From positions 1 through 64,000 of IMG/VR virus record IMGVR_UViG_3300028392_000041: a stretch of DNA of 64,000 bases; one strand, given 5' to 3'. The notes beneath the pieces were generated by a model that saw nothing but the letters and a program-made list of their open reading frames with translations, was not told the origin of the DNA and did not search any database. The position numbers and the translations under genes were made by a program. Positions 14,143 to 49,066 of this stretch are shown here, piece by piece. This DNA comes from a virus. How positions within the stretch are numbered: position 1 is the stretch's first letter; each line of letters opens with the position of its first letter.

Positions 14143-14150
14143 TATTTATA
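14143..14150 (-). promoter_or_regulatory. Perfect T4 late promoter TATAAATA
   Basis: Exact T4 gp55 consensus, 25 nt upstream of the ATG at 14118. Confidence 0.8.
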
Positions 14151-14645: not shown

Positions 14646-15698
14646 TTAACTGGTATATCTAATGATAACGACACCGCCACCACCATTACCACCGACACCT
14701 GATGTTGGAGAAATTGGAGTTGTTGGACCACCACCATATCCACCACCGCCACCACCAGTTCCTGGTGTTCCGTTTTTATCTGTTCCTGGATTATATGTTG
14801 GACTAGTGCCATGACCACCACCACCAGAACCTCCTGGTCCACCAACAATAGAAGGAGAATTTGGTTGATTATAGTGACCACCGCCACCACCACCTGCGTA
14901 GGTAGTTCCATTCAACCATGATGAACCATTACCACCTGCTCCTGTGTTGCTTGAGGTTTCTAGTCCTGCTTGACCAGCTTGAGAAGCACCGCCACCGCCA
15001 CCTGCTTGATAGTAAACACCTGCTGGACCAGCAGAACCACCTGCGTTTCCTTGACCAGGAGTTCCTGATCCACCCGATCCGTTGTCATTTCCACCGCCAC
15101 CGCCAGAACCTCCTGGACCTGCGTTACCGCTACCTGAAACACTACCACCAGTACGAGAAGCACCTGCACCACCACCAATCGCAGTGGTCGGAACAACACT
15201 TATTCCACTATTTCCACCTTGAAATCCATAATTAGAGTAACCATTCCAGCCTGCTGCTCCTGGAGAAGTACCACCACCTGAGCCACCACTACCAACAGTA
15301 ACAGTAACTGTTCCAACAGTTAAAGTTGTTGATCCGTTTACATATCCACCTGCGCCACCACCACCTTGGCCACCTCGACCATCGGTACCAGCACCACCGC
15401 CACCACCAGCAACAATAAGATAATCAACACTCTTAGTTCCTTGTGTAACTGTCAGAGATCCAGACTGAGTCCATGTTTGATAAGTGTAGTTTCCTGATGT
15501 TGTGGTTGTTGCGTTCACATTTGCTGTGGCGAATGCTCCGATACCAATCCATGATGAACTTACTGAATCGTAATATTCAAGATATGAGGTTGTCTCATTT
15601 TGGCGAAGCATTCCGAAACTTCCTGTTGGTCTTTGTGCAGTTGTTCCGACAGGAAGCGTAATCGCTTGTTGACCTAGTATTACTCCATCTCTTGCCAT
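14646..15698 (-). CDS. Glycine-rich putative adhesin/fibre-tip protein, paralogue 1
   Basis: LPVGTTAQRP..GMLRQN N-terminal module; YLIVAGGGGG...GGGGAGG...GGGGVVIIRY polyglycine domain. Confidence 0.7.
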   Translation of the reverse strand: MARDGVILGQQAITLPVGTTAQRPTGSFGMLRQNETTSYLEYYDSVSSSWIGIGAFATANVNATTTTSGNYTYQTWTQSGSLTVTQGTKSVDYLIVAGGGGGAGTDGRGGQGGGGAGGYVNGSTTLTVGTVTVTVGSGGSGGGTSPGAAGWNGYSNYGFQGGNSGISVVPTTAIGGGAGASRTGGSVSGSGNAGPGGSGGGGGNDNGSGGSGTPGQGNAGGSAGPAGVYYQAGGGGGASQAGQAGLETSSNTGAGGNGSSWLNGTTYAGGGGGGHYNQPNSPSIVGGPGGSGGGGHGTSPTYNPGTDKNGTPGTGGGGGGYGGGPTTPISPTSGVGGNGGGGVVIIRYTS

Positions 15699-15710
15699 TT
15701 TAATTCCTAA

Positions 15711-16727
15711 TTATGTTGTATATCTAACAATGACTACACCACCGCCACCAGCAGCACCTGTCAAACTATTTCCACTTGTAGGTTGATTACCACCTGCACC
15801 GCCACCGCCACCACCAGTTCCTGGTGAACCAGCAACAGCTGCAATATTTTTATCAGCGCCACATGCGCCATTTCCGCCACCACCTGCTCCACCATAAGAA
15901 GTTTGTGTTATAGAATATCCGTTTGAGTGATGAGCACCACCGCCACCACCACCTGCGTAGGTAGTTCCATTCAACCAAGTTTTTCCACCACCACCATACG
16001 AAGCAGCTCCTGGCGACGCTTGAGCAGAATTACCACCAGCTTGGTTAGCACCACCACCACCACCACCCCAATAGTAAACATCTGGACCTGAGCCAGAACC
16101 ACCTGCGTTTCCTTGGCCAGAAGTTCCTGATCCACCTGGACCATTGTCTGTTCCGCCACCACCGCCAGAACCTCCTGGGGTTCCATTGTATGGACCAGCT
16201 GGTGCACGACATCCACCGCCACCGCCACCGAGTGCTGTTGTTGGAACACCTGTGAGCGAACTATTGTTACCAGAGTAACCAACGATAATATTTGCTCCTG
16301 GTGCTGATCCACCGCTACCAACAGTAACTGAGTATACACCACCGACAAGTGTCATTGAACCAGAAACATATCCACCTGCTCCACCGCCACCTTGTCCTCC
16401 TGGACCAGTTGTTCCACCACCTGCGCCACCACCAGCGACAACAAGGTAGTCTGCAGATTTAACACCTGATGTAACTGTTAGCGAACCAGACTGTGTCCAA
16501 GTCAAATATGTATATCCACCAGAAGCCGATGTTGTTGCTCCAACACTTTGTTGTTGGAATGCTCCGACACCAATCCAAGATGTTGTTGTTACATCATAGT
16601 ACTCAATATACCCAGTTGTTTCATTTGCTCTAAGCATACCAGAAACACCTGTCGGTCTTTGTGCAGAACTTCCTCTTGGTAGAGCAACATACTGCGCTCC
16701 TAGTATTGATCCATCATTCGCAGCCAT
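15711..16727 (-). CDS. Glycine-rich putative adhesin/fibre-tip protein, paralogue 2
   Basis: Same architecture as 14646..15698. Confidence 0.7.
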   Translation of the reverse strand: MAANDGSILGAQYVALPRGSSAQRPTGVSGMLRANETTGYIEYYDVTTTSWIGVGAFQQQSVGATTSASGGYTYLTWTQSGSLTVTSGVKSADYLVVAGGGAGGGTTGPGGQGGGGAGGYVSGSMTLVGGVYSVTVGSGGSAPGANIIVGYSGNNSSLTGVPTTALGGGGGGCRAPAGPYNGTPGGSGGGGGTDNGPGGSGTSGQGNAGGSGSGPDVYYWGGGGGGANQAGGNSAQASPGAASYGGGGKTWLNGTTYAGGGGGGAHHSNGYSITQTSYGGAGGGGNGACGADKNIAAVAGSPGTGGGGGGAGGNQPTSGNSLTGAAGGGGVVIVRYTT

Positions 16728-16736
16728 TGATATTCC

Positions 16737-17783
16737 TTAAGTTGTATATCTAATAATGATTGTTCCGCCACCACCATTACCACCGACACCTGATGCTGGA
16801 GAAATTGGAGTTGCTGGACCACCACCGTATCCGCCACCACCTCCACCAGTTCCTGGCGAACCATTAATTAATGCATTAGATTGTTGTGGCGATGTTCCGC
16901 GACCACCACCACCAGAACCAGCAGTACCTCCGAGTAAAGTAGAAGTATTTGGACCATTATAGTGGCCAGCACCACCGCCACCTGCGTAGGTAGTTCCATT
17001 CAACCAAGTGGATCCGTTTCCACCAGCACCAGTTGGAGGAGCTTGCTCAACACCTGCTTGACCAGCTTGAGAAGCACCGCCACCGCCACCTGCTTGATAG
17101 TAAGTTCCTGCTGGACCGCCTGATCCACCTGGATTTCCTTGACCAGGAGTTCCTGATCCACCTGAACCATTGTCGTTACCGCCACCACCGCCTGATCCAC
17201 CTGGACCTGCGTTACCAGGAGCGCCACCAGTAATTCTTGATGCTCCTGCGCCACCACCAATTGCTGTAGTTGGGACGGATGTCATAGAACTATTATTACC
17301 TTGGAATCCGTAGTTAGCATAACCACCATATCCAGTAGATGATGGAGAAATAGCACCACCATTACCACCGCCACCAACAGTCATTGTATATATGCCATTG
17401 TTAACTGTTACAGAGCCACTAACATATCCACCAGCACCACCGCCACCTTGTCCACCACGACCATCAGTGCCAGCACCGCCACCGCCACCTGCTACGATTA
17501 GATAGTCAATTGTTTTAGTGCCAGCAGTAACAGACATTGTTCCTGACTGAGTCCAAGTTTGATAAGTGTAGTTTCCTGATTGTGTTGCTGTGTTATTTGT
17601 AAAAGTGGCATTAAATGCTCCGATACCCAACCAAACTGCATTGGTTGCATCATAGTATTCAATATACTTGGTGTCGGAGTTCGCTCTTATCCAACCAAAC
17701 TGTGGTGAACCTGGACGATCTGCAGTTCCACCAACTGGTAATGTTAAAGCCTGTTGCCCTAATATTGCTGTATTAGTTGCCAT
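16737..17783 (-). CDS. Glycine-rich putative adhesin/fibre-tip protein, paralogue 3
   Basis: Same architecture; shares identical DNA blocks with paralogues 1 and 2. Confidence 0.7.
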   Translation of the reverse strand: MATNTAILGQQALTLPVGGTADRPGSPQFGWIRANSDTKYIEYYDATNAVWLGIGAFNATFTNNTATQSGNYTYQTWTQSGTMSVTAGTKTIDYLIVAGGGGGAGTDGRGGQGGGGAGGYVSGSVTVNNGIYTMTVGGGGNGGAISPSSTGYGGYANYGFQGNNSSMTSVPTTAIGGGAGASRITGGAPGNAGPGGSGGGGGNDNGSGGSGTPGQGNPGGSGGPAGTYYQAGGGGGASQAGQAGVEQAPPTGAGGNGSTWLNGTTYAGGGGAGHYNGPNTSTLLGGTAGSGGGGRGTSPQQSNALINGSPGTGGGGGGYGGGPATPISPASGVGGNGGGGTIIIRYTT

Positions 17784-18634
17784 TATTTAATTCCCTGTAA
17801 TTCTTTTACTTGATTATTTAACTCTTTAATTGCCTCAATGAGTAAAGGAACAATTTTTTCATACTGAACAGTTTTATAATTTTCTCCAGAGCGAGAGATC
17901 TCAGTTTCTTCAAATCGAATAATATCGAAGGGAGCTGGTTTAACTGCTTCTGGTAAAACTTTCTCAACATCAGCAGCAAGAACACCGACCTGAGATTCTT
18001 TATTGGTAAAACCAAACGATTCTGCTAATTGGTTGGCATTATAAGTTACACCATTCAGAGCCATAACTTTATTTAATGCATCTGTAATTGGTGTAATATT
18101 TTCTTTTAATCTGGCATCAGAGTAATAAGAAGTAATTTGGTTTGTAGCACGAATTTCGCCTGTAGTTCCTGTTCCAGCAACACCAACACCGATTGATCCA
18201 AATTGCACATTTGACGCAGAAGCCAAATCTTGTGGGGTTGACAGAGTAATTGAACCAGCACCATTAGTAACTGTAATCTGGTTAGTAGTACCAGTTAATG
18301 TTGTTTTTGTGAGAGTATTACCAGTTGTATTACCAATTAAAATTTGACCATTAGTAAATGTAGTTTGACCAGTACCACCAGAAGCCACTGGTAGTGCGCC
18401 ACCTGAGATCGTTAGTCCTGTAGCTGTAATATTTCCAACAGCAATATCGCCAGCACTGTTTCTAAGAACCAATGTGCTTCCAGTATTTGCATAAGACATA
18501 ACACTGGTTTCAATTTTATTCGTGGCAAGACTGATAAAATTATTATCGATTTCTGCGCTGGAAAGTGGCGATCCCTTTACTGTGGGAGCGTATGTTGCGT
18601 CGGTGGAAACTCTGGTTGTCAGGGCTGTGGTCAT
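17783..18634 (-). CDS. Short tail fibre protein with peptidase S74 chaperone
   Basis: KGSPLSSAEIDNNF N-terminal motif; YYSDARLKENI...LLIEAIKEL C-terminus. Confidence 0.78.
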   Translation of the reverse strand: MTTALTTRVSTDATYAPTVKGSPLSSAEIDNNFISLATNKIETSVMSYANTGSTLVLRNSAGDIAVGNITATGLTISGGALPVASGGTGQTTFTNGQILIGNTTGNTLTKTTLTGTTNQITVTNGAGSITLSTPQDLASASNVQFGSIGVGVAGTGTTGEIRATNQITSYYSDARLKENITPITDALNKVMALNGVTYNANQLAESFGFTNKESQVGVLAADVEKVLPEAVKPAPFDIIRFEETEISRSGENYKTVQYEKIVPLLIEAIKELNNQVKELQGIK

Positions 18635-18659: not shown

Positions 18660-18667
18660 TATTTATT
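18660..18667 (-). promoter_or_regulatory. Late promoter variant AATAAATA
   Basis: NNTAAATA overlapping the halogenase stop, upstream of the fibre gene. Confidence 0.5.
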
Positions 18668-19787
18668 ATTTAGTGTATCCAATGCCAGCTGCAATGGCAT
18701 TCCAGCTTTTATCTGGAAATAGGTTAAAACTGTACTGTACATCATTTTCGTTTATTCTATTTAATAATTTTTCTGGCATATAATTATTAAGTTGAAAATC
18801 CTTCCAGAACCCTGTGTCAGCTCTTTGACTGAGGTAGTGAAAGTACAAAAATGATAAAATATCTTCATTCAACTCTTTTACATCATTGTTTACTTTTTCT
18901 GGATTATCTCTATTCTGCACAAATAATTTAAGTGCCATAATCTGAATCCAGATTGATGTTGCTTCCAATGGTTCAATAAATCCTGAAGATAATCCAACTG
19001 CCATACAGTTGTTCACCCAAACCTGTTTATATGCGCCAGCACTAAAATTAAAAGTTCTTGGTGAAACAAAATCGTGTCCAAGATAATCTCTAATTTCTTC
19101 TGCAGCTTCCTCATCTGTTGTCATTGTTGAATCGAAAACATATCCACACCCATAACGACCTTGAACTGGAATCTTCCAGATCCAGCCATATTTCATTGCA
19201 ACAGATTCTGTATAGTCAGGAGAATTATCATTTGGTAGAAAGAAAGGTATGGCACGATTACATGGCATAGGATATTCTTCCCAATCAGACTTATATATTT
19301 CTCCAATTAACAGTCGTTTAAATCCCGAACAATCAAAAAAGAAATCGCCTGATACTGGACCAGCTGGTGTTACAAGACTGGTTATATCTTTATTATCTAG
19401 TAGTACCTTTATTACTTCATTATTAATTATTGTAACACCACGAGATACTGCTACATCTTGTAAATATTTTGCCAATAAAGAAGCATCAAAGTGTAAAGCA
19501 TATTTGTTATCCCAGAAATTATGAAAGTAATGTTCACCATCACCATTCCAGTTTGTAAACTTAATTCCTGTTTTTAATGTTGCTTTACAGTTTGAAACTA
19601 ATTCTAATTCGGTAATACCAACCTCTTCAAGATACTCCATAAAAGCAGGAGTAGTTCCTTCACCAGCACCAAGAATACCAATTTCTGAACTTGCGACTAT
19701 CGTAACTTCATCATCTGGAAAGTTTTTGTTTAAATACAATGCTGTCAACCAACCAGCAGTTCCGCCACCGAGAATGACATATTTCAT
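18666..19787 (-). CDS. Flavin-dependent (tryptophan halogenase-like) halogenase
   Basis: GGGTAG FAD motif, GAGEGT, catalytic-Lys region ATLKTGIKF, WIWKIP (WxWxIP), FIEPLEATSI. Confidence 0.88.
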   Translation of the reverse strand: MKYVILGGGTAGWLTALYLNKNFPDDEVTIVASSEIGILGAGEGTTPAFMEYLEEVGITELELVSNCKATLKTGIKFTNWNGDGEHYFHNFWDNKYALHFDASLLAKYLQDVAVSRGVTIINNEVIKVLLDNKDITSLVTPAGPVSGDFFFDCSGFKRLLIGEIYKSDWEEYPMPCNRAIPFFLPNDNSPDYTESVAMKYGWIWKIPVQGRYGCGYVFDSTMTTDEEAAEEIRDYLGHDFVSPRTFNFSAGAYKQVWVNNCMAVGLSSGFIEPLEATSIWIQIMALKLFVQNRDNPEKVNNDVKELNEDILSFLYFHYLSQRADTGFWKDFQLNNYMPEKLLNRINENDVQYSFNLFPDKSWNAIAAGIGYTK

Positions 19788-20311
19788 TTAAAGTGTGTAG
19801 AAATTGCTATCGACAATCTCATCTCTTGACTTAAATTTGATTCAACAGAATGAACAATATATCCTGGAAAAATTAATAGCATTCCTGGAACTGGAGTAAT
19901 TTTATGGTAAGGTCTATAAGACTGCCATGTTACATCTGTTCTTGCTTGTGGGTCTTGCCATAATATAGATCCTCTTGGATCATGTAGTAAAATATCACCA
20001 GAGTTTTCTGGAACTTTAACATAGTAAACAACAGCCAACATACACTCAGGGTGATGATGTGGAGAATTATTTCCTCCTGGCATCGTAGGATTTTGTCTAG
20101 CAGATAGCGTAAAATATTTTGAAAGTTTACATTCTTCTGCAACTGATTCAATGTATGGTAAAACAATATCTTTTAACTTTGGCGCAATATGAAAATAATC
20201 AGAACCCTGTGTATAGTGTGGTGCCAGCGCAAGCAATTCCTGATTCAACATACCAGAATCAGATATCACTGTTTGCCAAACAGGAGTTGTAAATAAAGTT
20301 TCTTTATTCAT
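19784..20311 (-). CDS. 2OG-Fe(II) oxygenase (TIGR02466-like); start re-assigned to MNKETLF
   Basis: LFTTPVW, HHH...AVVYYV, DPR, GMLLIFPGYIVHSV, RLSIA; ATG at 20311 overlaps the upstream stop. Confidence 0.82.
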   Translation of the reverse strand: MNKETLFTTPVWQTVISDSGMLNQELLALAPHYTQGSDYFHIAPKLKDIVLPYIESVAEECKLSKYFTLSARQNPTMPGGNNSPHHHPECMLAVVYYVKVPENSGDILLHDPRGSILWQDPQARTDVTWQSYRPYHKITPVPGMLLIFPGYIVHSVESNLSQEMRLSIAISTHFK

Positions 20312-20840
20312 AAATCGACATGGCAATTGATAATCTAAGAGTTCCGCTAAAATTTGGCTCAACTGAGTGTATCAAATAACTTGGAAATAAAATAAGCATC
20401 CCAGGTTTGGGTGTTATTCTATGATATATTCTTTGAGTTTTTCCAGTATCTTCTGTTCTGGCGTTTAAATCTGGCCAATCAGTTCCACCTCTTGGATCAT
20501 GCAGCAAAATATCTCCACAATTTGATTCTGCTTTAACATAATAAATACCAACCAATTTATGCCCATGATGGTAGTGTGGTGTATCTAATTCGTTTGGAAA
20601 TAATGGTCTTTGTGTTCCATGTATTCCTTTAGGTTTATTTCTCCAATTATACTGAACAGAAATTTCGTCACATATTTCTTTCATTTTGTATTTTAATTTT
20701 TTAATATTATCACCAGCAAGATCGAAATAATTTCCGCTGGTAAATAACATACCTTCTCGTTCAAGAGCAGTATTATCGAGTAAACCTTTTAAATCAAGAA
20801 CCCATAAAGGAGTTCCAAACATTATATTATTCTGCAGCAT
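20304..20840 (-). CDS. 2OG-Fe(II) oxygenase (TIGR02466-like)
   Basis: HYH..GIYYV, GDILLHDPRG, GMLILFPSYLIHSV, RLSIA; paralogue of the adjacent gene. Confidence 0.82.
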   Translation of the reverse strand: MLQNNIMFGTPLWVLDLKGLLDNTALEREGMLFTSGNYFDLAGDNIKKLKYKMKEICDEISVQYNWRNKPKGIHGTQRPLFPNELDTPHYHHGHKLVGIYYVKAESNCGDILLHDPRGGTDWPDLNARTEDTGKTQRIYHRITPKPGMLILFPSYLIHSVEPNFSGTLRLSIAMSIYE

Positions 20841-21519
20841 TACTTTTTTTAATCAGTTCCTGTAAATTATCAATCGCCCAATAATGATTTTCTTCAATTT
20901 CATAAATTAATTCTGAGATTGCAAAACAAACATTATATGTTTTTACTTTAGGATTAATCTTATCTATAATGTCAATGTTAGCCACTACCATTAATGGTCT
21001 TTCGCAATCCATAGAAGAAATAACTTTGGGATCTTTTATGTATTCAATTGCTAAGTTATTTACTTTATCAAGAGCTAATAATTTTTGCTCTAATACCTGT
21101 AATGGTTCGCTCTTTATAATTACCAATTCGGGTGGCATTTCATGTAGGATTACAAAATCCATATTTGGTGGACGAACAAAATAAATAAGTTTTCCACGAT
21201 TATATAGAGGACTATGTCCAGCAATTAATGATCCAGAATTTTCCATGTCTGGACATGGACAATTAAATAAATGCTCAAAGGGTAATTGTTTATATGAGTC
21301 TCCATCAATAATTCTGTTTGGAACTAAAAATGCTATCTCTACAGGTTCTTCTTCTGTTCCACGATCACCTTTTACAATGTAATCCAAAAATACACAATCT
21401 TTGTCTTCAACTTGACTTAACACATACTCTGGTGGATCGAGCACCTCAAGAGAAATGACGCATTCTAATTCTTTGGCTGCATCAATAAATTTTTGTAAAT
21501 TTGGGGTAATTGTTGCCAT
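20827..21519 (-). CDS. Hypothetical protein in the modification cluster
   Basis: 230 aa ORF tightly packed between the SPASM gene and the oxygenase; no motif recognised. Confidence 0.6.
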   Translation of the reverse strand: MATITPNLQKFIDAAKELECVISLEVLDPPEYVLSQVEDKDCVFLDYIVKGDRGTEEEPVEIAFLVPNRIIDGDSYKQLPFEHLFNCPCPDMENSGSLIAGHSPLYNRGKLIYFVRPPNMDFVILHEMPPELVIIKSEPLQVLEQKLLALDKVNNLAIEYIKDPKVISSMDCERPLMVVANIDIIDKINPKVKTYNVCFAISELIYEIEENHYWAIDNLQELIKKSNAAE

Positions 21520-21520
21520 C

Positions 21521-22969
21521 TTATGCCTCTACTTTTGATTGTCCGTATACCTGAACATCATCAATTTGAGTAACAATCTCGCTCACCACTTTAATAGGTA
21601 TAACTTTCTTTTTTGTTTTTTCTTTATGCTCGAACTGTGTTCCCCAAATATCTTGTCGTTCCAATGGAAGAACATCATTTTTAATTAGAACAGGAACATA
21701 ACCTCTAGTCATCTTTTCAAACCCTAATGCAAATAAAGCAATATTATCTGAGTATGCATTGTCGCAAGAAACTTCCCATAGTTCTCCATCAAGGAACATA
21801 CAAGAACCTTTACAAATATGTAGGACTGGACATGCTGAACATTCTTTACGATTTCTCCAATGTGTTGCAGTTTTAACAGCTACATTATCATAATCTTCTA
21901 AAGTTCCAGATAAATGACTTTCTCCATTCATACCAGTTTCAACTGGAGAAACATTTTGACAAGTCATAACATTACCACGAAGATCAATGGCTAATGTGTT
22001 TTCTTCATCCATTCCACACTTCTGACCAACAAATTTTGCGTTTCTGTGAGTAAGAACTGATGTAACAAACTGATCAACTTTTGTCGTAATCATTGTAAAA
22101 CCAATATTACCATTATTAGAGTAAATATCATTAAATGATAATTTTCTAAAATCAAAATGTTCTTGTTTTGTGTTTAATGAACTTTGGGCACCATCTGCGT
22201 CATACGCATCAACAATAGTGCCTTCGCCAAGAACAATATTTTCGTCGCCAGTAAAATTAATAAACCAATTATGTATATCTTTACGACTTTGATTTTTTGC
22301 ATTAAGCATAGAGTTAAAACTCATGCGTCCCTGTTTTTTCATAATACGATAAAAATCAAGAACTATTTTTTTCTGTTCTGGATCTTCAAATGGATCTGGA
22401 CCACGAACTGATTGTCCTGGACCATCATGACTTATGGCTACCGAAAATCCCATGTAGTACAGCCATTGACAAATTTCTTTGGTTAAAATAGAACCATTAG
22501 TTATAACACTGAATTTTGGTTCAACTTTCCAATCAGAAAATCTTTCGCGAAGTGCTTCAGCCAATGGTTTTAATGTTTTCCAATAAACAAAAGGTTCGCC
22601 ACCCCAAAATTCAATTTTAAGACCAGCTTGTTCAGAGAAATTTAAAACATCAAGTTTTTCTAAAAAAGCGTCAATATCTTTTTTAGATGTTTCTGGTGCT
22701 CTTTCCACAAATTTTTGCGAACAATAATCGCAAGAATAATTACAAGATAAACCAAGTTGAATCTTCAATAGAGTTATATCTTTAGATTTTTTTATTGGAT
22801 TAGTTTTATCAAATGGCAAAGACTCTTTTCGAGTTTCTGGTTGGCGTTGATCTTCTGGGTATTCTATAACGACACCCTCGTGATTGGTTAAAGTATTAAT
22901 CTCATTGTCGTAGAAGAAAACCTTCTTATCATTATCACCAAGTCGTTCAGCATGAATTTCAAAAATCAT
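21521..22969 (-). CDS. Radical SAM/SPASM-domain maturase
   Basis: CNYSCDYC, FWGGEP, ITNG, ISHDGP; SPASM cysteines KCG...MTC...CSACPVLHICKGSC...SC. Confidence 0.9.
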   Translation of the reverse strand: MIFEIHAERLGDNDKKVFFYDNEINTLTNHEGVVIEYPEDQRQPETRKESLPFDKTNPIKKSKDITLLKIQLGLSCNYSCDYCSQKFVERAPETSKKDIDAFLEKLDVLNFSEQAGLKIEFWGGEPFVYWKTLKPLAEALRERFSDWKVEPKFSVITNGSILTKEICQWLYYMGFSVAISHDGPGQSVRGPDPFEDPEQKKIVLDFYRIMKKQGRMSFNSMLNAKNQSRKDIHNWFINFTGDENIVLGEGTIVDAYDADGAQSSLNTKQEHFDFRKLSFNDIYSNNGNIGFTMITTKVDQFVTSVLTHRNAKFVGQKCGMDEENTLAIDLRGNVMTCQNVSPVETGMNGESHLSGTLEDYDNVAVKTATHWRNRKECSACPVLHICKGSCMFLDGELWEVSCDNAYSDNIALFALGFEKMTRGYVPVLIKNDVLPLERQDIWGTQFEHKEKTKKKVIPIKVVSEIVTQIDDVQVYGQSKVEA

Positions 22970-22993
22970 AGTATTCCCAATTTTATAGTTTAA

Positions 22994-23413
22994 TTACCAG
23001 CAAGCACAATCACAAACAAAACAATTACATTGACATTGACACGCACAATTTACCCATTGATCTTGGTTCTGCGTGCAGTTATATGTAGTGGCACAATTTG
23101 TTCCAGGCTGTAAATATGATTGTGTATCACAGTTTGCGCAATTAATCGTATTACAATTTGAACAGTTATTACATTGAGCAGTACCACCTGTTCCTGGAGC
23201 TATTCCAGTTAAACTTTCTGTACAGTTACCATTGTTACAATTACCATCAGCATTGCGTTGGTAATAATTTAACCCATGAAGACTATTATAGTCTGTTGGA
23301 TTACCCTTAGTGTTATCTTTAATCCAGTCGATGCCAGTCTGCGTGGTTGTTCCGCGACCTGTTTCGTTATTAACATCGCTAGTTGCTATTGCTCCAGATG
23401 CTGGTGTTGTCAT
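22994..23413 (-). CDS. Cys/Asn-rich protein, candidate substrate (precursor) of the adjacent radical SAM enzymes
   Basis: 139 aa with 17 Cys in the C-terminal ~80 aa, 10 of them as NC dipeptides; ends NCACQCQCNCFVCDCACW; N-terminus MTTPASGAIATSDVNNETGR resembles small phage virion-protein N-termini. Confidence 0.7.
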   Translation of the reverse strand: MTTPASGAIATSDVNNETGRGTTTQTGIDWIKDNTKGNPTDYNSLHGLNYYQRNADGNCNNGNCTESLTGIAPGTGGTAQCNNCSNCNTINCANCDTQSYLQPGTNCATTYNCTQNQDQWVNCACQCQCNCFVCDCACW

Positions 23414-23444
23414 GACTTTACCTTGATTGCCTTGTATACAGTAC

Positions 23445-23452
23445 TATTTATA
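23445..23452 (-). promoter_or_regulatory. Perfect T4 late promoter TATAAATA driving the Cys-rich gene and downstream enzymes
   Basis: Exact consensus 32 nt upstream of the ATG at 23413. Confidence 0.8.
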
Positions 23453-24974
23453 ATGCTCCAACCATAGATTTATATTCTAAAAACTTGTTAGAATTTAAGG
23501 ATGGTATATCATATTTTTTTATAGTTTCTTCTTCTGAGAGAGAGTAAATATCTTCCAAAGATATCCCAGTAGATAGGGCTGCAGGAACATAAAAGCCAGA
23601 TATCTTATTCATTGGGTTTCTGAGATCGTTAAACTTATTGGCTATATCTAAACACATACGATAGTTTAATTTTTGAGTTTTTAAATCCCAACAGTATTTT
23701 AAATCTTCTTGGAAGGTATATCCATAAACCTCTGGATTGATACTAAATTCTGAACCATATTTAGAAAGTGGATCTTCTTTTCCATAATTAAACATCATTA
23801 ATGGATAATATAAAATAGATTGTAATGGGTTATCTTCTTCTAAACTCCAAGACAAGAGTTCATTAAAATATGCAAGATTATCGTATGGGAGACCAAGGAT
23901 AAAGCCAGCTTCCATATTAACTTTATTTTCCCATTTTTCGCGAAGCCAATATAATCTATCTTTTACTTTATTTGGATTTAGTCCTTTACCAATTGCTTTA
24001 GCCGATTCTGGTTGCATTGTTTCTAAACCAAAAAAATTACCAACCAATCCCATATCCGTAAGCAAATCAGCTTGATGTGGATATTTGTTAATTAAATCAA
24101 TCCTAAGATAAGTAGAAAATTTTGGTTTAAATGGTAAGGAAGTAAATAGTTTGTGGAGTATTTCTAATTTATCATTATCATCATTAAATGTATCATCAGT
24201 AAAAAAGTAAGTGTCTGTCCCGTGAATTTCCCAAGTCTTAATTAGTTCATCTCGCACTTGTTCTAAATCGCGAACATATGTGCCTTTCTTTTTACCAGTT
24301 AGAGCATATGAACAAAATTTACATTTAAAAATACAGCCACGACCAAGTTCAATTGGTAATGCTTCACCTTTTAAAATTGGATAGTTCCACCAGCGAGTTG
24401 GAATATTTTTTACATCTGGTTCTGGAAATTTGGTAGAGTCAATAATTCTACCAAAAGAATTTAAAGATTTACCTGCCAAGTAATCGGTCAATGCAACTGT
24501 AGATGTATCAGCGTAACCAAGAACATAATGATCAATGTTACGATCTTTCATAAACCATGGGGTTCTTGCACCACCAAAAATTATTTTTGCTTGACTGTTG
24601 GAACGAACGAATTCAAATAATTGTTCTATTTCAGAATAATTTTCTGTATAATACATATCTTCAACATCATTATTACCTCTTGAATCTGCAACTCGTTCTT
24701 TAAATGTTTGATTTGGTCTCTGTCTTTGCCAAAAGAAAGTAGAAGAAAATCCAATCCAAAGAGTTTCTTTGCCAATATGTTTTTTTAAAACATTTAAAAT
24801 TTCTTCAATCGTAAATTTGTTTATGTAATCTAAAACAAATGTAGAATATCCAGCATCTTCTAAAGCTGATGCGAGTCTATATGGACCAAGAGATCTATAA
24901 ACAGAACAACGATCTTCAGAATTCCATGTTCCGCCAGATAATATAATACAGTTAGACAATATATGTCCCTTCAA
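23448..24974 (-). CDS. Radical SAM protein with a B12-binding-like N-terminal domain (class B methyltransferase-like architecture)
   Basis: LGPYRLASAL..AGY, IGFSSTF, IIFGG N-domain; ELGRGCIFKCKFC; FTDDTFND; FGLET; FILGLP. The true start may be a TTG at about 24959. Confidence 0.8.
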   Translation of the reverse strand: MKGHILSNCIILSGGTWNSEDRCSVYRSLGPYRLASALEDAGYSTFVLDYINKFTIEEILNVLKKHIGKETLWIGFSSTFFWQRQRPNQTFKERVADSRGNNDVEDMYYTENYSEIEQLFEFVRSNSQAKIIFGGARTPWFMKDRNIDHYVLGYADTSTVALTDYLAGKSLNSFGRIIDSTKFPEPDVKNIPTRWWNYPILKGEALPIELGRGCIFKCKFCSYALTGKKKGTYVRDLEQVRDELIKTWEIHGTDTYFFTDDTFNDDNDKLEILHKLFTSLPFKPKFSTYLRIDLINKYPHQADLLTDMGLVGNFFGLETMQPESAKAIGKGLNPNKVKDRLYWLREKWENKVNMEAGFILGLPYDNLAYFNELLSWSLEEDNPLQSILYYPLMMFNYGKEDPLSKYGSEFSINPEVYGYTFQEDLKYCWDLKTQKLNYRMCLDIANKFNDLRNPMNKISGFYVPAALSTGISLEDIYSLSEEETIKKYDIPSLNSNKFLEYKSMVGAL

Positions 24975-25533
24975 ATACTAAACAAATTCTTGGTATATCG
25001 CTATTGTGAATACTTACTGCATGTGGAATATCTGGAGAGTGTATAACAAGTCTACCTGTTCTTGATTTGATAGTTGTTATTTTAGATTCATCATACTCAT
25101 AATAGTGTGTATTAAATTTACCACCATTAATGAATAGTAGGTTTGCTCCATCTTCTGGCACTTGGTAATAAAAAATTGCAACGAAGTCTGGTTTCTTTGC
25201 TAAATTTTCATTTATATGAGCGTGAACCAAACCCTCACTATTCTTCATCATTTTATTACACCAAGATTTGGTGTAATTTATTCCAGACGCTTTTGGGTTT
25301 GCTATTAAAACTTTTTCAGTTATCCAGTCTACTAATTTACCTGCTCCTGGCATATTAACAATATCAGACCAGTCGTTTCCAACTGAAGTCAAAACATTTC
25401 CCTGTGCTGAGTCGTATTTAGAACCTTGTTCTCTGTTTATAACTTGTGGGAGTTCTAGTAATAGATTTATACTAGCAGATAATAATGAATTTTGATACAA
25501 CGATGTATCATCACATTGAATAATGTGTAACAT
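24952..25533 (-). CDS. 2OG-Fe(II) oxygenase-like protein
   Basis: SWCN, HAH, AIFYYQVP, GRLVIHSPDIPHAV, RICLVF. Confidence 0.72.
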   Translation of the reverse strand: MLHIIQCDDTSLYQNSLLSASINLLLELPQVINREQGSKYDSAQGNVLTSVGNDWSDIVNMPGAGKLVDWITEKVLIANPKASGINYTKSWCNKMMKNSEGLVHAHINENLAKKPDFVAIFYYQVPEDGANLLFINGGKFNTHYYEYDESKITTIKSRTGRLVIHSPDIPHAVSIHNSDIPRICLVFEGTYIV

Positions 25534-25551: not shown

Positions 25552-26796
25552 TTATTTTAATGCTTGAATCTCTGCTCTCAGTTCTTTAATTGCTTCAATA
25601 ACCAATGGCATCATACGAGCATAATCAACTGTTAAATACTGCGCATCAATCGGAGCTGGACCAACAATTTCTGGTAGTACTGATTCAACTGACTGAGCAG
25701 AAACACCAACTTCTTTCTTAACAGTATATCCTAAATCTTGAGCAGTTTGATTGGCTTCAAAATAGAACCCTTCCAATGAACAGAGTTTGTCCAAAGCATT
25801 TTCAATTTTACCAAGTTTATTTTTTAAGCGATCGTCAGAATAATAACCAGTAATGTTGCCAGTTGCAGTTATATTTCCAGTAACAGCAATTCCATTTGCT
25901 GTAATAGAACCACTTGCAGACAATGATGTTGTATTAATACTACCATTAGCATATAATCCGCCAGTAATAGAAGCTGTTCCAGCTACAGTAGCATTGCCAG
26001 ATAAAACTAATGATGTAATAGAAATTCCTGATGATGCTGGAAGATCAACAGAAATATTTCCACCAACACCACTACCATTAGTAATAACAATACCATTACC
26101 ATTGGTAACAATTGATCGTTGAATAACAGAACCAGCACCAAGACGAACATAGATTCCAGTTGCTGAGTTTGCTGCAGCAATACCTGTTAATTCGTTTGAG
26201 AATGGTTGAACATCAGAACCAAGCTGAAGCCCAAGGTTAGAACGAGCAGCAGAAGCAGTCGCTGAGCCAGTTCCACCATCGGCAATTGCCAAAGCAGTTG
26301 TAAGACCAGAAATTGTTCCGCCAGTAATAGCAACAGCACTTGCTGCCTGTGTTGCGATAGTCCCTAATCCAAGGTTAGAACGAGCAGAAGAAGCAGAAGA
26401 TCCGCCTGTTCCACCATTATTAATAGCAACTGTGCCCGAAACATTGGTTGCGTTTCCACTTAAAGTTCCAGTTACATTACCTGTAACATTACCAGTTAAA
26501 TTCGCAATTACTGTAGTAGCACGAACTGTTCCAGCAAAAAGATCTCCATTAGAATCGCGAAGAGCAATAGTATTTGCCGTTGCTGCAGAGTCAGAACTAT
26601 ATCCATCCAACAAGTCAGCATCTAAACCAGAACCAGTTCCATCAACAGTTTTCAATTTGGTAAGAACATCAGCTGCAGTGTAGGAAGCTGATGGCAAAGC
26701 AAGATTTAACTGTGTATTGATATTATTAAAGTTATCGTCGACCTCTTGGTTTGAGAGAGGACTTCCTTTAATAGTGCGTAGCGTAATTGATGCCAT
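25552..26796 (-). CDS. Tail fibre protein with peptidase S74 chaperone
   Basis: KGSPLSNQEVDDNF, DGTGSGLDADLLDG, repeated GGTG..A..ARSNLGL, YYSDDRLKN...VIEAIKEL. Confidence 0.82.
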   Translation of the reverse strand: MASITLRTIKGSPLSNQEVDDNFNNINTQLNLALPSASYTAADVLTKLKTVDGTGSGLDADLLDGYSSDSAATANTIALRDSNGDLFAGTVRATTVIANLTGNVTGNVTGTLSGNATNVSGTVAINNGGTGGSSASSARSNLGLGTIATQAASAVAITGGTISGLTTALAIADGGTGSATASAARSNLGLQLGSDVQPFSNELTGIAAANSATGIYVRLGAGSVIQRSIVTNGNGIVITNGSGVGGNISVDLPASSGISITSLVLSGNATVAGTASITGGLYANGSINTTSLSASGSITANGIAVTGNITATGNITGYYSDDRLKNKLGKIENALDKLCSLEGFYFEANQTAQDLGYTVKKEVGVSAQSVESVLPEIVGPAPIDAQYLTVDYARMMPLVIEAIKELRAEIQALK

Positions 26797-42277: not shown

Positions 42278-42285
42278 TATTTATA
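42278..42285 (-). promoter_or_regulatory. Perfect late promoter TATAAATA
   Basis: Exact consensus, 6 nt upstream of the gp25 ATG. Confidence 0.75.
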
Positions 42286-48631: not shown

Positions 48632-49063
48632 TTCCACAAAAGAAAGTTTACACCAACAAACCCACAAAAATACTCTGGGGATCCAACAAACATAATTATG
48701 AGATCCAGCTGGGAAACCAAGTTTGCTAACTGGTGTGATGTAAATCCAAGTATAGTTAAGTGGGTTTCAGAGGAAACTATTATCCCTTATCGTTGTGGCA
48801 CAGATAACAAAATACATCGTTATTTCGTTGACTTTAAGATCGTTGTAAAAGAGTCAACTGGTAATCTTAAAACATATCTGGTTGAAATTAAACCATACAA
48901 ACAGACAATTCCTCCTGTGTTTCCTGGACGCCAAACTCAGCGTTATCTTCAAGAATCATTCGCTTATATCAAGAACCAGTCTAAATGGTCTGCAGCGACA
49001 CAGTATGCAAAAGAGCGAGGTTGGGAGTTTATTAAACTGACGGAACATGAACTGGGACTATAA
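48629..49063 (+). CDS. gp4: Head completion nuclease gp4 (start re-assigned to MFHKRK)
   Basis: PTNPQKYSGDP..I..RSSWE, HRYFVDF, LVEIKP, NQSKW.AA. Confidence 0.92.
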   Translation: MFHKRKFTPTNPQKYSGDPTNIIMRSSWETKFANWCDVNPSIVKWVSEETIIPYRCGTDNKIHRYFVDFKIVVKESTGNLKTYLVEIKPYKQTIPPVFPGRQTQRYLQESFAYIKNQSKWSAATQYAKERGWEFIKLTEHELGL

Positions 49064-49066
49064 ATA
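49059..49066 (+). promoter_or_regulatory. Perfect late promoter TATAAATA
   Basis: Exact consensus, 5 nt upstream of the gp2 ATG. Confidence 0.75.

Follow-up and report, generated by a model that had tools for sequence, protein, structure and literature searches.

Related systems and the viral cluster

Ranthionines are installed on a protein by a SPASM enzyme in the CrpC/CrpA system, as shown by mass spectrometry (Dieter et al. 2026; PMC13692751). A gene cluster that invites comparison with this system was found at 18666-25533 of a viral DNA stretch of 64,000 nucleotides, which comprises positions 1 to 64,000 of the IMG/VR record IMGVR_UViG_3300028392_000041 and is referred to here as the window. 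Its central genes encode a radical S-adenosylmethionine (SAM) enzyme with a SPASM domain and a Cys-rich protein of 139 residues with the C-terminus NCACQCQCNCFVCDCACW, in which Cys alternates with other residues, most often Asn (the ladder), and Trp is the last residue. The comparative data suggest that the cluster is probably a late-expressed cassette for the maturation of a small fibre-type or receptor-binding protein, such as a fibre tip.

In CrpC/CrpA of Methanococcus voltae (TIGR04463), as in the window, the SPASM gene lies beside a gene for a Cys-rich protein rather than for a short peptide. Like the window protein, CrpA consists of an N-terminal domain and C-terminal Cys repeats, and its Cys-rich part is poorly predicted; substrate engagement involves the N-terminal protein domain (PMC13692751). 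The differences are equally clear. The window SPASM enzyme reaches 47.8 bits against TIGR04463, over its N-terminal part only, relative to a cut-off of 525, and is not a member of that family. Its presumed substrate carries an alternating N/C ladder at the extreme C-terminus, whereas CrpA contains C-X-X-Q/D repeats. The window also adds the context of virus fibres, a late promoter, a halogenase, oxygenases, and a radical SAM enzyme of the B12 type.

Beta-thioethers from Cys to Asn or Asp are formed by the SPASM enzymes of NxxcB/NxxcA, a streptococcal RaS-RiPP system (RiPP, peptide made on ribosomes and modified after translation), and of PapB/PapA. The product of NxxcB is a Cys-Asn beta-thioether, and Ala, Gln, or Asp can also serve this enzyme as acceptor (PMC9389541). 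It is a precedent, and its acceptors are the residues that precede Cys in the proteins described here. PapB (NF047865) is the best full-length NCBIfam match of the window SPASM enzyme (residues 66-391), with 75.2 bits against a cut-off of 340, such that membership is again not indicated. Unlike in these pathways, no RiPP recognition element (RRE) was detected in the cluster, and the substrates would be fibre proteins and the 139-residue protein instead of short secreted peptides.

For the halogenase, the closest likeness is to the proteusin system SrpI/SrpE and to peptide halogenases such as MibH, in which a flavin halogenase acts on a C-terminal Trp and the substrate has a long structured N-terminal region (PMC10286304, PMC10858898); SrpI is reported to brominate the C-terminal Trp of a RiPP (PMC10286304). 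The window halogenase, a truncated member of the Trp-halogenase family (373 residues), is likened to SrpI by description, and its substrate is assigned by co-occurrence alone. The QhpD/QhpG/QhpC system of quinohemoprotein amine dehydrogenase combines SPASM-dependent Cys thioethers with a halogenase-like flavoenzyme acting on Trp, both on the same small Cys-rich protein. The window enzymes match the Qhp families weakly (TIGR03906, 6e-18; NF049967, 2e-8), in both cases far below the cut-offs; in contrast to the Qhp system, the Lys and Glu of halogenases are retained in the window flavoenzyme, and no dehydrogenase subunits are present. Autoprocessing by S74 (endosialidase-type) and Hint domains enters the comparison since these domains follow the ladder in homologues of the window protein and both fibres flanking the cluster use S74. 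A classical RiPP pathway is recognized by a dedicated leader, an RRE, and a leader peptidase or exporter. In the cluster, the N-domain is shared with fibre- and lectin-type proteins that are not Cys-rich, and no PqqD/RRE, peptidase, or transporter family was found.

Organization of the cluster

The initial annotation described eight tightly packed minus-strand genes of the same orientation with S74 fibre genes on both sides, an arrangement that was confirmed from the open reading frames (ORFs) and their families. Neighbouring genes are separated by -59 to +34 nt, overlaps included. All of the domain assignments were reproduced, that of the B12 domain in the second gene only weakly. In the order of transcription, the genes encode a 2-oxoglutarate (2OG)-Fe(II) oxygenase, the B12-like radical SAM enzyme, the Cys-rich protein, the SPASM enzyme, a 230-residue protein, two further 2OG oxygenases, and the halogenase:

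25552..26796, minus strand: upstream flanking tail-fibre gene, 414 residues, C-terminal S74 chaperone (Pfam PF13884, 1e-7; 23 PHROG tail-fibre families)
24952..25533, minus strand: 2OG-Fe(II) oxygenase 1, 193 residues (PF13759, 28.5 bits, cut-off 27; phrog_81, 1e-15)
23448..24974, minus strand: radical SAM protein with a weak B12-binding-like N-terminal region, 508 residues, TTG start (PF04055, 3e-15; PF02310, E 0.007)
23445..23452, minus strand: octamer TATAAATA of the T4 late promoter type, 31 nt ahead of the Cys-rich gene's ATG
23243..23413, minus strand: N-terminal adaptor domain of the Cys-rich protein, about 55 residues, MTxPxSGxI...E.G... type (AlphaFold2, profile search)
22994..23242, minus strand: Cys/Asn-rich region of the 139-residue protein with the ladder NCACQCQCNCFVCDCACW and terminal Trp (17 Cys)
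21521..22969, minus strand: radical SAM/SPASM enzyme, 482 residues, phrog_1802 (PF04055, 2.6e-8; TIGR04085; phrog_1802, 1e-61)
20827..21519, minus strand: 230-residue protein of unassigned family (no Pfam, NCBIfam, or PHROG match)
20304..20840, minus strand: 2OG-Fe(II) oxygenase 2, 178 residues (PF13759, 2e-16, 60.6 bits; TIGR02466-like)
19784..20362, minus strand: 2OG-Fe(II) oxygenase 3, 192 residues from TTG (PF13759, 3e-19, 69.9 bits)
18666..19787, minus strand: compact flavin-dependent halogenase, 373 residues (PF04820, 8e-95, 318.8 bits, cut-off 21)
17783..18634, minus strand: downstream flanking tail-fibre gene, 283 residues, S74 chaperone (PF13884, 3e-16; 32 PHROG tail-fibre families)

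The SPASM enzyme and its pairing with the ladder

The SPASM enzyme is a Radical_SAM member with CX3CX2C at Cys 76/80/83 in the PF04055 domain. It exceeds the cut-off of TIGR04085 (34.6 versus 27 bits) and possesses the full seven-Cys SPASM motif (CX9-15GX4C ... CX2CX5CX3C ... C) at Cys 318, 337, 377, 380, 386, 390, and 402. In 33 diverse homologues, none of the ten cluster-binding Cys varies, neither the three of the radical SAM nor the seven of the SPASM domain.

Homologues of the enzyme (phrog_1802) were collected with their flanks from viral contigs (80 of 148 relatives kept) and from bacterial genomes (80 of 243 relatives kept, mostly freshwater Burkholderiales such as Limnohabitans and Polynucleobacter), and further viral contigs with flanks were gathered via the Cys-rich family. 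After removal of duplicates, the pooled sources contained 171 distinct SPASM enzymes. In 155 of the loci, a ladder ORF lies on the same strand within 4 kb of the SPASM gene (147 identified by script and 8 on inspection); in the remaining 16, the contig ends within 2.4 kb on the side that matters or, for L223, the sequence is garbled. As a strand control, ORFs with CxCxC were counted on the coding strand, where they occur in 139 of the 171 loci, and on the opposite strand, where they occur in 24. The pairing is kept in distant loci, in which identity to the window SPASM enzyme drops to 36-49%. The initial annotation had called for a search for NC-rich ORFs next to the SPASM gene across phages and had named relatives with the enzymes but without the Cys-rich ORF as evidence against its proposal. 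The expected co-occurrence is seen in the 155 loci, and in no informative locus does the SPASM gene stand without a ladder gene. By inheritance, SPASM and ladder proteins behave as an obligate pair, and as judged from the sequences they are very probably enzyme and substrate.

A 162-kb viral contig contains two tandem SPASM paralogues behind a Cys-rich gene that ends in ...CNCACCDGG (L153:9385-13037).

The Cys-rich protein

The Cys-rich protein (22994-23413, minus strand) has no Cys in residues 1-58; the first of its 17 Cys is residue 59. NC dipeptides occur ten times, compared with 3.0 +/- 1.4 times in shuffled sequences, whereas the NxxC motif, with two occurrences against 3.0 expected in shuffles, is not enriched. 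The alternation of the ladder nevertheless places N, D, A, or Q three residues ahead of a Cys, in register. The family comprises at least 77 metagenome clusters with invariant Cys positions, and the residue before Cys is Asn in 64%, Ala in 19%, Asp in 8%, and Gln in 4% of the cases.

AlphaFold2 (AF2), supplied with 59 sequences, predicts a confident small domain for residues 1-55, with a confidence score (pLDDT) of 83-88. In a Foldseek comparison of the model with viral structures, only the protein's own long-form homologue (see below) was matched. A profile of residues 1-57 retrieved 682 cluster representatives, in every one of which the domain is N-terminal. Among the 127 proteins inspected, 80 run into Cys-rich regions and 47 into unrelated domains: Laminin_G with DUF7483 (virion and tail-fibre PHROGs), fibrinogen-C, glycine-rich regions, and a "tail fiber; host specificity" family. 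Judged by sequence, this spread is the pattern of modular receptor-binding proteins, in which the attachment end is constant and the distal end varies. A role of the N-domain as a dedicated RiPP leader was considered and rejected, since the profile search finds the same domain on fibre- and lectin-type proteins that are not Cys-rich. The 55-residue module, with the pattern MTLPxSGxISxxxVNxELG..., stands at the start of no fewer than 682 protein clusters whose C-terminal domains differ greatly (PHROGs 26817 and 26746, "unknown function"). It has the look of a widespread attachment domain, as yet unnamed, in small fibre and receptor-binding proteins of phages.

The Cys-rich gene adjoins the SPASM gene in all relatives, and in several loci it sits immediately next to a fibre gene's stop codon. 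In the window it is preceded by the late promoter octamer TATAAATA noted in the initial annotation, which was located at 23452-23445 on the minus strand, where it overlaps the stop codon of the preceding gene. The octamer occurs at four positions in the window:

14143-14150, minus strand
23445-23452, minus strand
42278-42285, minus strand
49059-49066, plus strand

Seven occurrences would be expected by chance, and the count alone therefore carries no weight. All four lie on the coding strand 5-31 nt ahead of a gene start. In 36 of 85 related viral loci, TATAAATA is found 26-33 nt ahead of the Cys-rich gene, compared with 4.2% of other ORFs, whether the Cys-rich gene stands before or after the SPASM gene. 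The recurrence at a fixed distance indicates that a separate late promoter drives the Cys-rich gene, as one would expect if its product is structural.

Ladders at the ends of fibre-type proteins

In relatives, the ladder forms the C-terminus of fibre proteins. The fibre gp028 of the Achromobacter siphovirus JWF has the sequence ...NCNCDCNCNCS, after which comes a Hint domain's first Cys, and the "side tail fiber" gp048 of the Ralstonia myovirus RSP15 ends with ...NCQCGN; in both phages the SPASM gene is located one or two genes downstream. In 64 of the 80 bacterial loci, an ORF of 200-620 residues ends in a ladder, for example ...RYNCNCDCNCC. Five of eight such ORFs tested match PHROG tail-fibre families, two of them with collagen-like repeats.

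Homologues of the window protein occur in five forms: free-ending with Trp, extended by S74, extended by Hint, extended by a domain of about 140 residues, and free-ending without Trp. In the S74 and Hint forms the ladder stops exactly at the cleavage point. Peptidase_S74 is carried by the Cys-rich homologues L157, L173, and L142 and is absent from the window protein. In L157 it starts at Ser129 of ...CACFW/SDDTLKD (the slash marks the junction), with Trp directly before the Ser, and in L143 the Hint Cys comes right after ...CVCDC; the S74 domain of the upstream flanking fibre in the window starts at SDDRLK (residue 320). Cleavage by S74 presumably falls before the Ser at the ladder junction, as in endoNF and T5 pb1. 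Placed right after the ladder, the self-cleaving S74 and Hint domains would leave it as the C-terminus of the mature protein. For the window protein cleavage is unnecessary, as the gene stops directly after the Trp codon.

The long form, present in 52 distinct loci (L010-L077-type, e.g. L011:7468-8376), consists of the Cys-rich domain and the domain of about 140 residues, which begins with CSKIIC.KL..G.M and has a hydrophobic, transmembrane-like tail. This C-terminal domain has no Pfam match and falls in no named protein-atlas cluster. In the long-form loci, the terminal Trp and the halogenase have both been lost, and the SPASM gene is upstream of the substrate gene.

In prophages, a conserved protein of about 285 residues is usually encoded between the ladder fibre and the oxygenase and SPASM genes (L218:5483-6340 and 48 other distinct homologues). 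It is modelled as tandem Ig-like beta-sandwiches (AF2 pLDDT 91), has no counterpart in the window, and, from the model, could be a fibre accessory protein or chaperone.

The halogenase and the terminal tryptophan

The halogenase retains GGGTAGW, GWIWKIP, the catalytic Lys within ATLK (which aligns with ATYK), and EPLEAT (which aligns with EPLEST). It lacks about 70 residues after residue 93 and the C-terminal module of PrnA and RebH, the halogenases of free Trp, which have approximately 510-550 residues; alignments end near chain residues 430-455 of those enzymes. The possibility that the flavoenzyme is a QhpG-type monooxygenase was rejected, as the halogenase Lys and Glu are intact and the Trp_halogenase score is 319 bits.

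A mature C-terminal Trp and the halogenase go together in 15 of 15 unique informative loci, including the S74-form L157, and a halogenase is present in none of the approximately 130 loci without a terminal Trp. Three apparent exceptions to this coupling comprise the truncated contigs L207 and L212 and the prophage fibre L221. In the SPASM tree, the loci with Trp and halogenase form the basal grade of a 78-tip clade, and both features were lost together in the derived long-form clade and in L173. Close homologues of the halogenase were found only inside the cassette, another point at which enzymes without the Cys-rich ORF might have appeared; other viral halogenases (at most 45% identity, about 500 residues) have no cassette nearby. 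The pattern makes the terminal Trp of the Cys-rich protein a likely target of the halogenase.

Accessory enzymes

All three oxygenases score above the PF13759 cut-off of 27 bits (28.5, 60.6, and 69.9 bits). The metal site of 2OG oxygenases is usually HxD/E...H; that of the three window enzymes reads HxH...H, and a prophage homologue (L218) has HxD. Oxygenase 1 lies directly upstream in close relatives as well, oxygenase 2 clusters with oxygenases encoded between the fibre and SPASM genes of prophages, and the PDB relatives of oxygenase 3 (3bvc, 2rg4) are uncharacterised. Its more likely true start is the ATG at 20311. Of 64 distant loci, 45 have a 2OG oxygenase gene, of one of two families, between those for the fibre and the SPASM enzyme, which makes such an enzyme a frequent third member of the module.

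The 508-residue radical SAM protein contains CX3CX2C at 214/218/221. Its score for PF02310 is 16.6 bits against a cut-off of 32.1 (E 0.007), partial matches to B12 and radical SAM families of NCBIfam are far below the cut-offs, and its sole PDB match is CysS (E 0.005); it is a candidate class B methyltransferase. The gene is present in many relatives and absent from close loci of the L005/L006/L145 type. Homologues of the 230-residue protein occur only in window-type loci. No Pfam, NCBIfam, or PHROG family matches it, the best protein-atlas template-modelling score is at most 0.37, and hhalign comparison with four accessory families encoded between fibre and SPASM genes elsewhere yielded probabilities below 1%. 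An obligatory role of these two proteins in the pathway, as initially envisaged, is not supported; they come and go among close relatives and are in this sense optional.

Proposed maturation and alternative explanations

According to the proposed scheme, the 139-residue protein would be produced in quantity late in infection, and the SPASM enzyme, equipped with three Fe-S clusters and SAM, would introduce covalent cross-links into the ladder. Most likely these would join Cys as thioethers to carbons of neighbouring Asn, Asp, Ala, or Gln, a choice made by analogy with CrpC/CrpA, NxxcB, PapB, and QhpD; the chance that the cross-link is in fact a thioether is put at slightly less than even. The links would confer, in the reducing cytoplasm, a rigidity like that provided by disulfides in extracellular proteins. 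The compact flavin-dependent halogenase would then place a halogen on the C-terminal Trp, the three 2OG oxygenases would probably hydroxylate side chains, and the B12-type radical SAM enzyme, as an optional tailoring enzyme, would probably methylate carbon. Through the N-domain, the product would dock on a fibre and sit on the virion as a tip or cap.

The initial annotation had left a choice between a modified virion or receptor-binding component and a free phage RiPP. The comparative evidence favours the former over the latter because the ladder ends real fibres and precedes S74 and Hint domains and because the N-domain is a general fibre-type adaptor. On balance, we expect the product to be associated with the virion. 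Gene content, conserved motifs, the obligate co-occurrence, the coupling of Trp and halogenase, and the modular use of the N-domain are shown by the sequences; the location on the virion and the chemistry of every step (thioether, methyl, hydroxyl, halogen) are inferred.

Several observations weigh against this scheme. The SPASM enzyme falls far below the cut-off of every curated maturase family. Among PDB sequences it is closest to a cyclopropylglycine synthase, not to a thioether synthase, with CteB in second place, and homology therefore does not reveal the type of reaction. For the Cys-rich region, AF2 predicts no fold (pLDDT below 50). The prophage fibre L221 ends in Trp in a locus without a halogenase, and given the joint losses in the SPASM tree, the coupling of Trp and halogenase rests on about two to three independent events, not on fifteen. 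Outside the cassette, oxygenases of the same 2OG family are common in phages. In the largest related clade, the long-form domain with its hydrophobic tail is atypical of fibres and could have a membrane role.

It is unlikely that the 139-residue protein is a proteusin-like precursor of a free RiPP, in which the N-domain would be the leader and the core would be released at lysis or act in the cell as a toxin, as a signal, or in host takeover, in any case outside the virion. The set of enzymes (SPASM, B12-type radical SAM, 2OG oxygenases, flavin halogenase) resembles that of proteusin and other RiPP clusters, the nearest NCBIfam matches are all peptide maturases, the long structured N-terminal part and the disordered, Cys-rich C-terminal part resemble a leader and a core, and C-terminal Trp halogenation of the SrpI type is a RiPP reaction. 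Arguing against this possibility are the Pfam and NCBIfam scans, in which no PqqD/RRE, leader peptidase, or exporter/transporter family was found in the cluster, and the presence of the N-domain at the head of large lectin- and fibre-type proteins that are not Cys-rich. In addition, the same enzyme family serves ladders at the C-termini of tail fibres of 200-620 residues, homologues carry S74 fibre chaperones, and the Cys-rich gene directly follows a fibre gene in several loci.

Quite unlikely is a scenario in which the ladder is an element of a trimeric fibre tip that forms a metal, Fe-S, or disulfide knot, while the SPASM enzyme has another role and the oxygenases and halogenase act on small molecules or the host surface. 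C-x-C at the ends of trimeric, partly collagen-like fibres would set many thiols on the three-fold axis, in the manner of the collagen III cystine knot or the His-x-His iron sites of T4 gp37; no fold of its own is predicted for the Cys-rich region, and possible metal binding has been raised for CrpA by the authors of that study (PMC13692751). Yet without an enzyme-substrate relation, it would be difficult to account for the strict long-range co-inheritance of the ladder and an enzyme in which all ten cluster-binding Cys are kept, and the halogenase tracks a single residue of the Cys-rich protein. Very improbable is the mere accretion of unrelated auxiliary (moron) genes, without a common pathway, at a hypervariable site between the fibre genes. 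Recombination concentrates in fibre regions, single 2OG oxygenases and halogenases occur in many T4-like phages, and the B12-type radical SAM enzyme and the 230-residue protein vary among close relatives. The SPASM-ladder pair, the nearby oxygenase, and the coupling of halogenase and Trp are nevertheless kept down to 36% SPASM identity and across myoviruses, siphoviruses, and prophages, and for the core genes the co-occurrence counts largely refute accretion.

Tail-fibre tips decide the host range of phages and, to our knowledge, have been thought to be finished only by folding chaperones and self-cleavage. No description of the present system, or of such chemistry on a virus particle, was found in the published literature. 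If the cassette matures a fibre tip, radical SAM cross-linking, here with halogenation, would constitute a new layer of virion maturation that could account for the disulfide-like rigidity of fibres assembled in the cytoplasm. RiPP-type chemistry would be extended from peptides to structural proteins of viruses, and a large SPASM family would gain a defined protein substrate with a simple motif. Whether this chemistry is general for receptor-binding tips appears evenly balanced; one SPASM family would then staple C-terminal ladders in hundreds of phages and prophages of all tail types, the variant found here being a stand-alone cap that would also be halogenated and probably hydroxylated and methylated.

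Source record, hosts, and neighbouring genes

The source record is a virus of 111.8 kb with a CheckV completeness of 69%. Terminase, baseplate hub and wedge, and many fibre genes identify it as a T4-like myovirus. Photosystem genes, including those of the psbA type, were not found in the 111.8 kb, and a cyanophage origin is therefore not indicated. Against cultured phages, the whole cluster gave no megablast match and the Cys-rich protein no tblastn match, to which the low-complexity filter may contribute. A scan for sigma-70 promoters and terminators revealed no excess.

The closest relatives in bacterial assemblies, with SPASM identities of 57-59%, are L213, a 28.7-kb contig of approximately 277x coverage from the assembly of a Polynucleobacter sp. 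isolate, and L214 from Paraburkholderia. Both have a window-like layout of fibre, stand-alone Cys protein, and SPASM enzyme. Together with many Limnohabitans prophages, they point tentatively to freshwater Burkholderiales as hosts of this phage group.

Downstream of the cluster, at 14646-17783 on the minus strand, the window contains three tandem paralogues of about 340 residues each, which are phrog_2295-like and have Gly-rich ends. The GC content of this stretch is 45-47%, compared with approximately 36% in the remaining window, and its GC skew is strongly negative.

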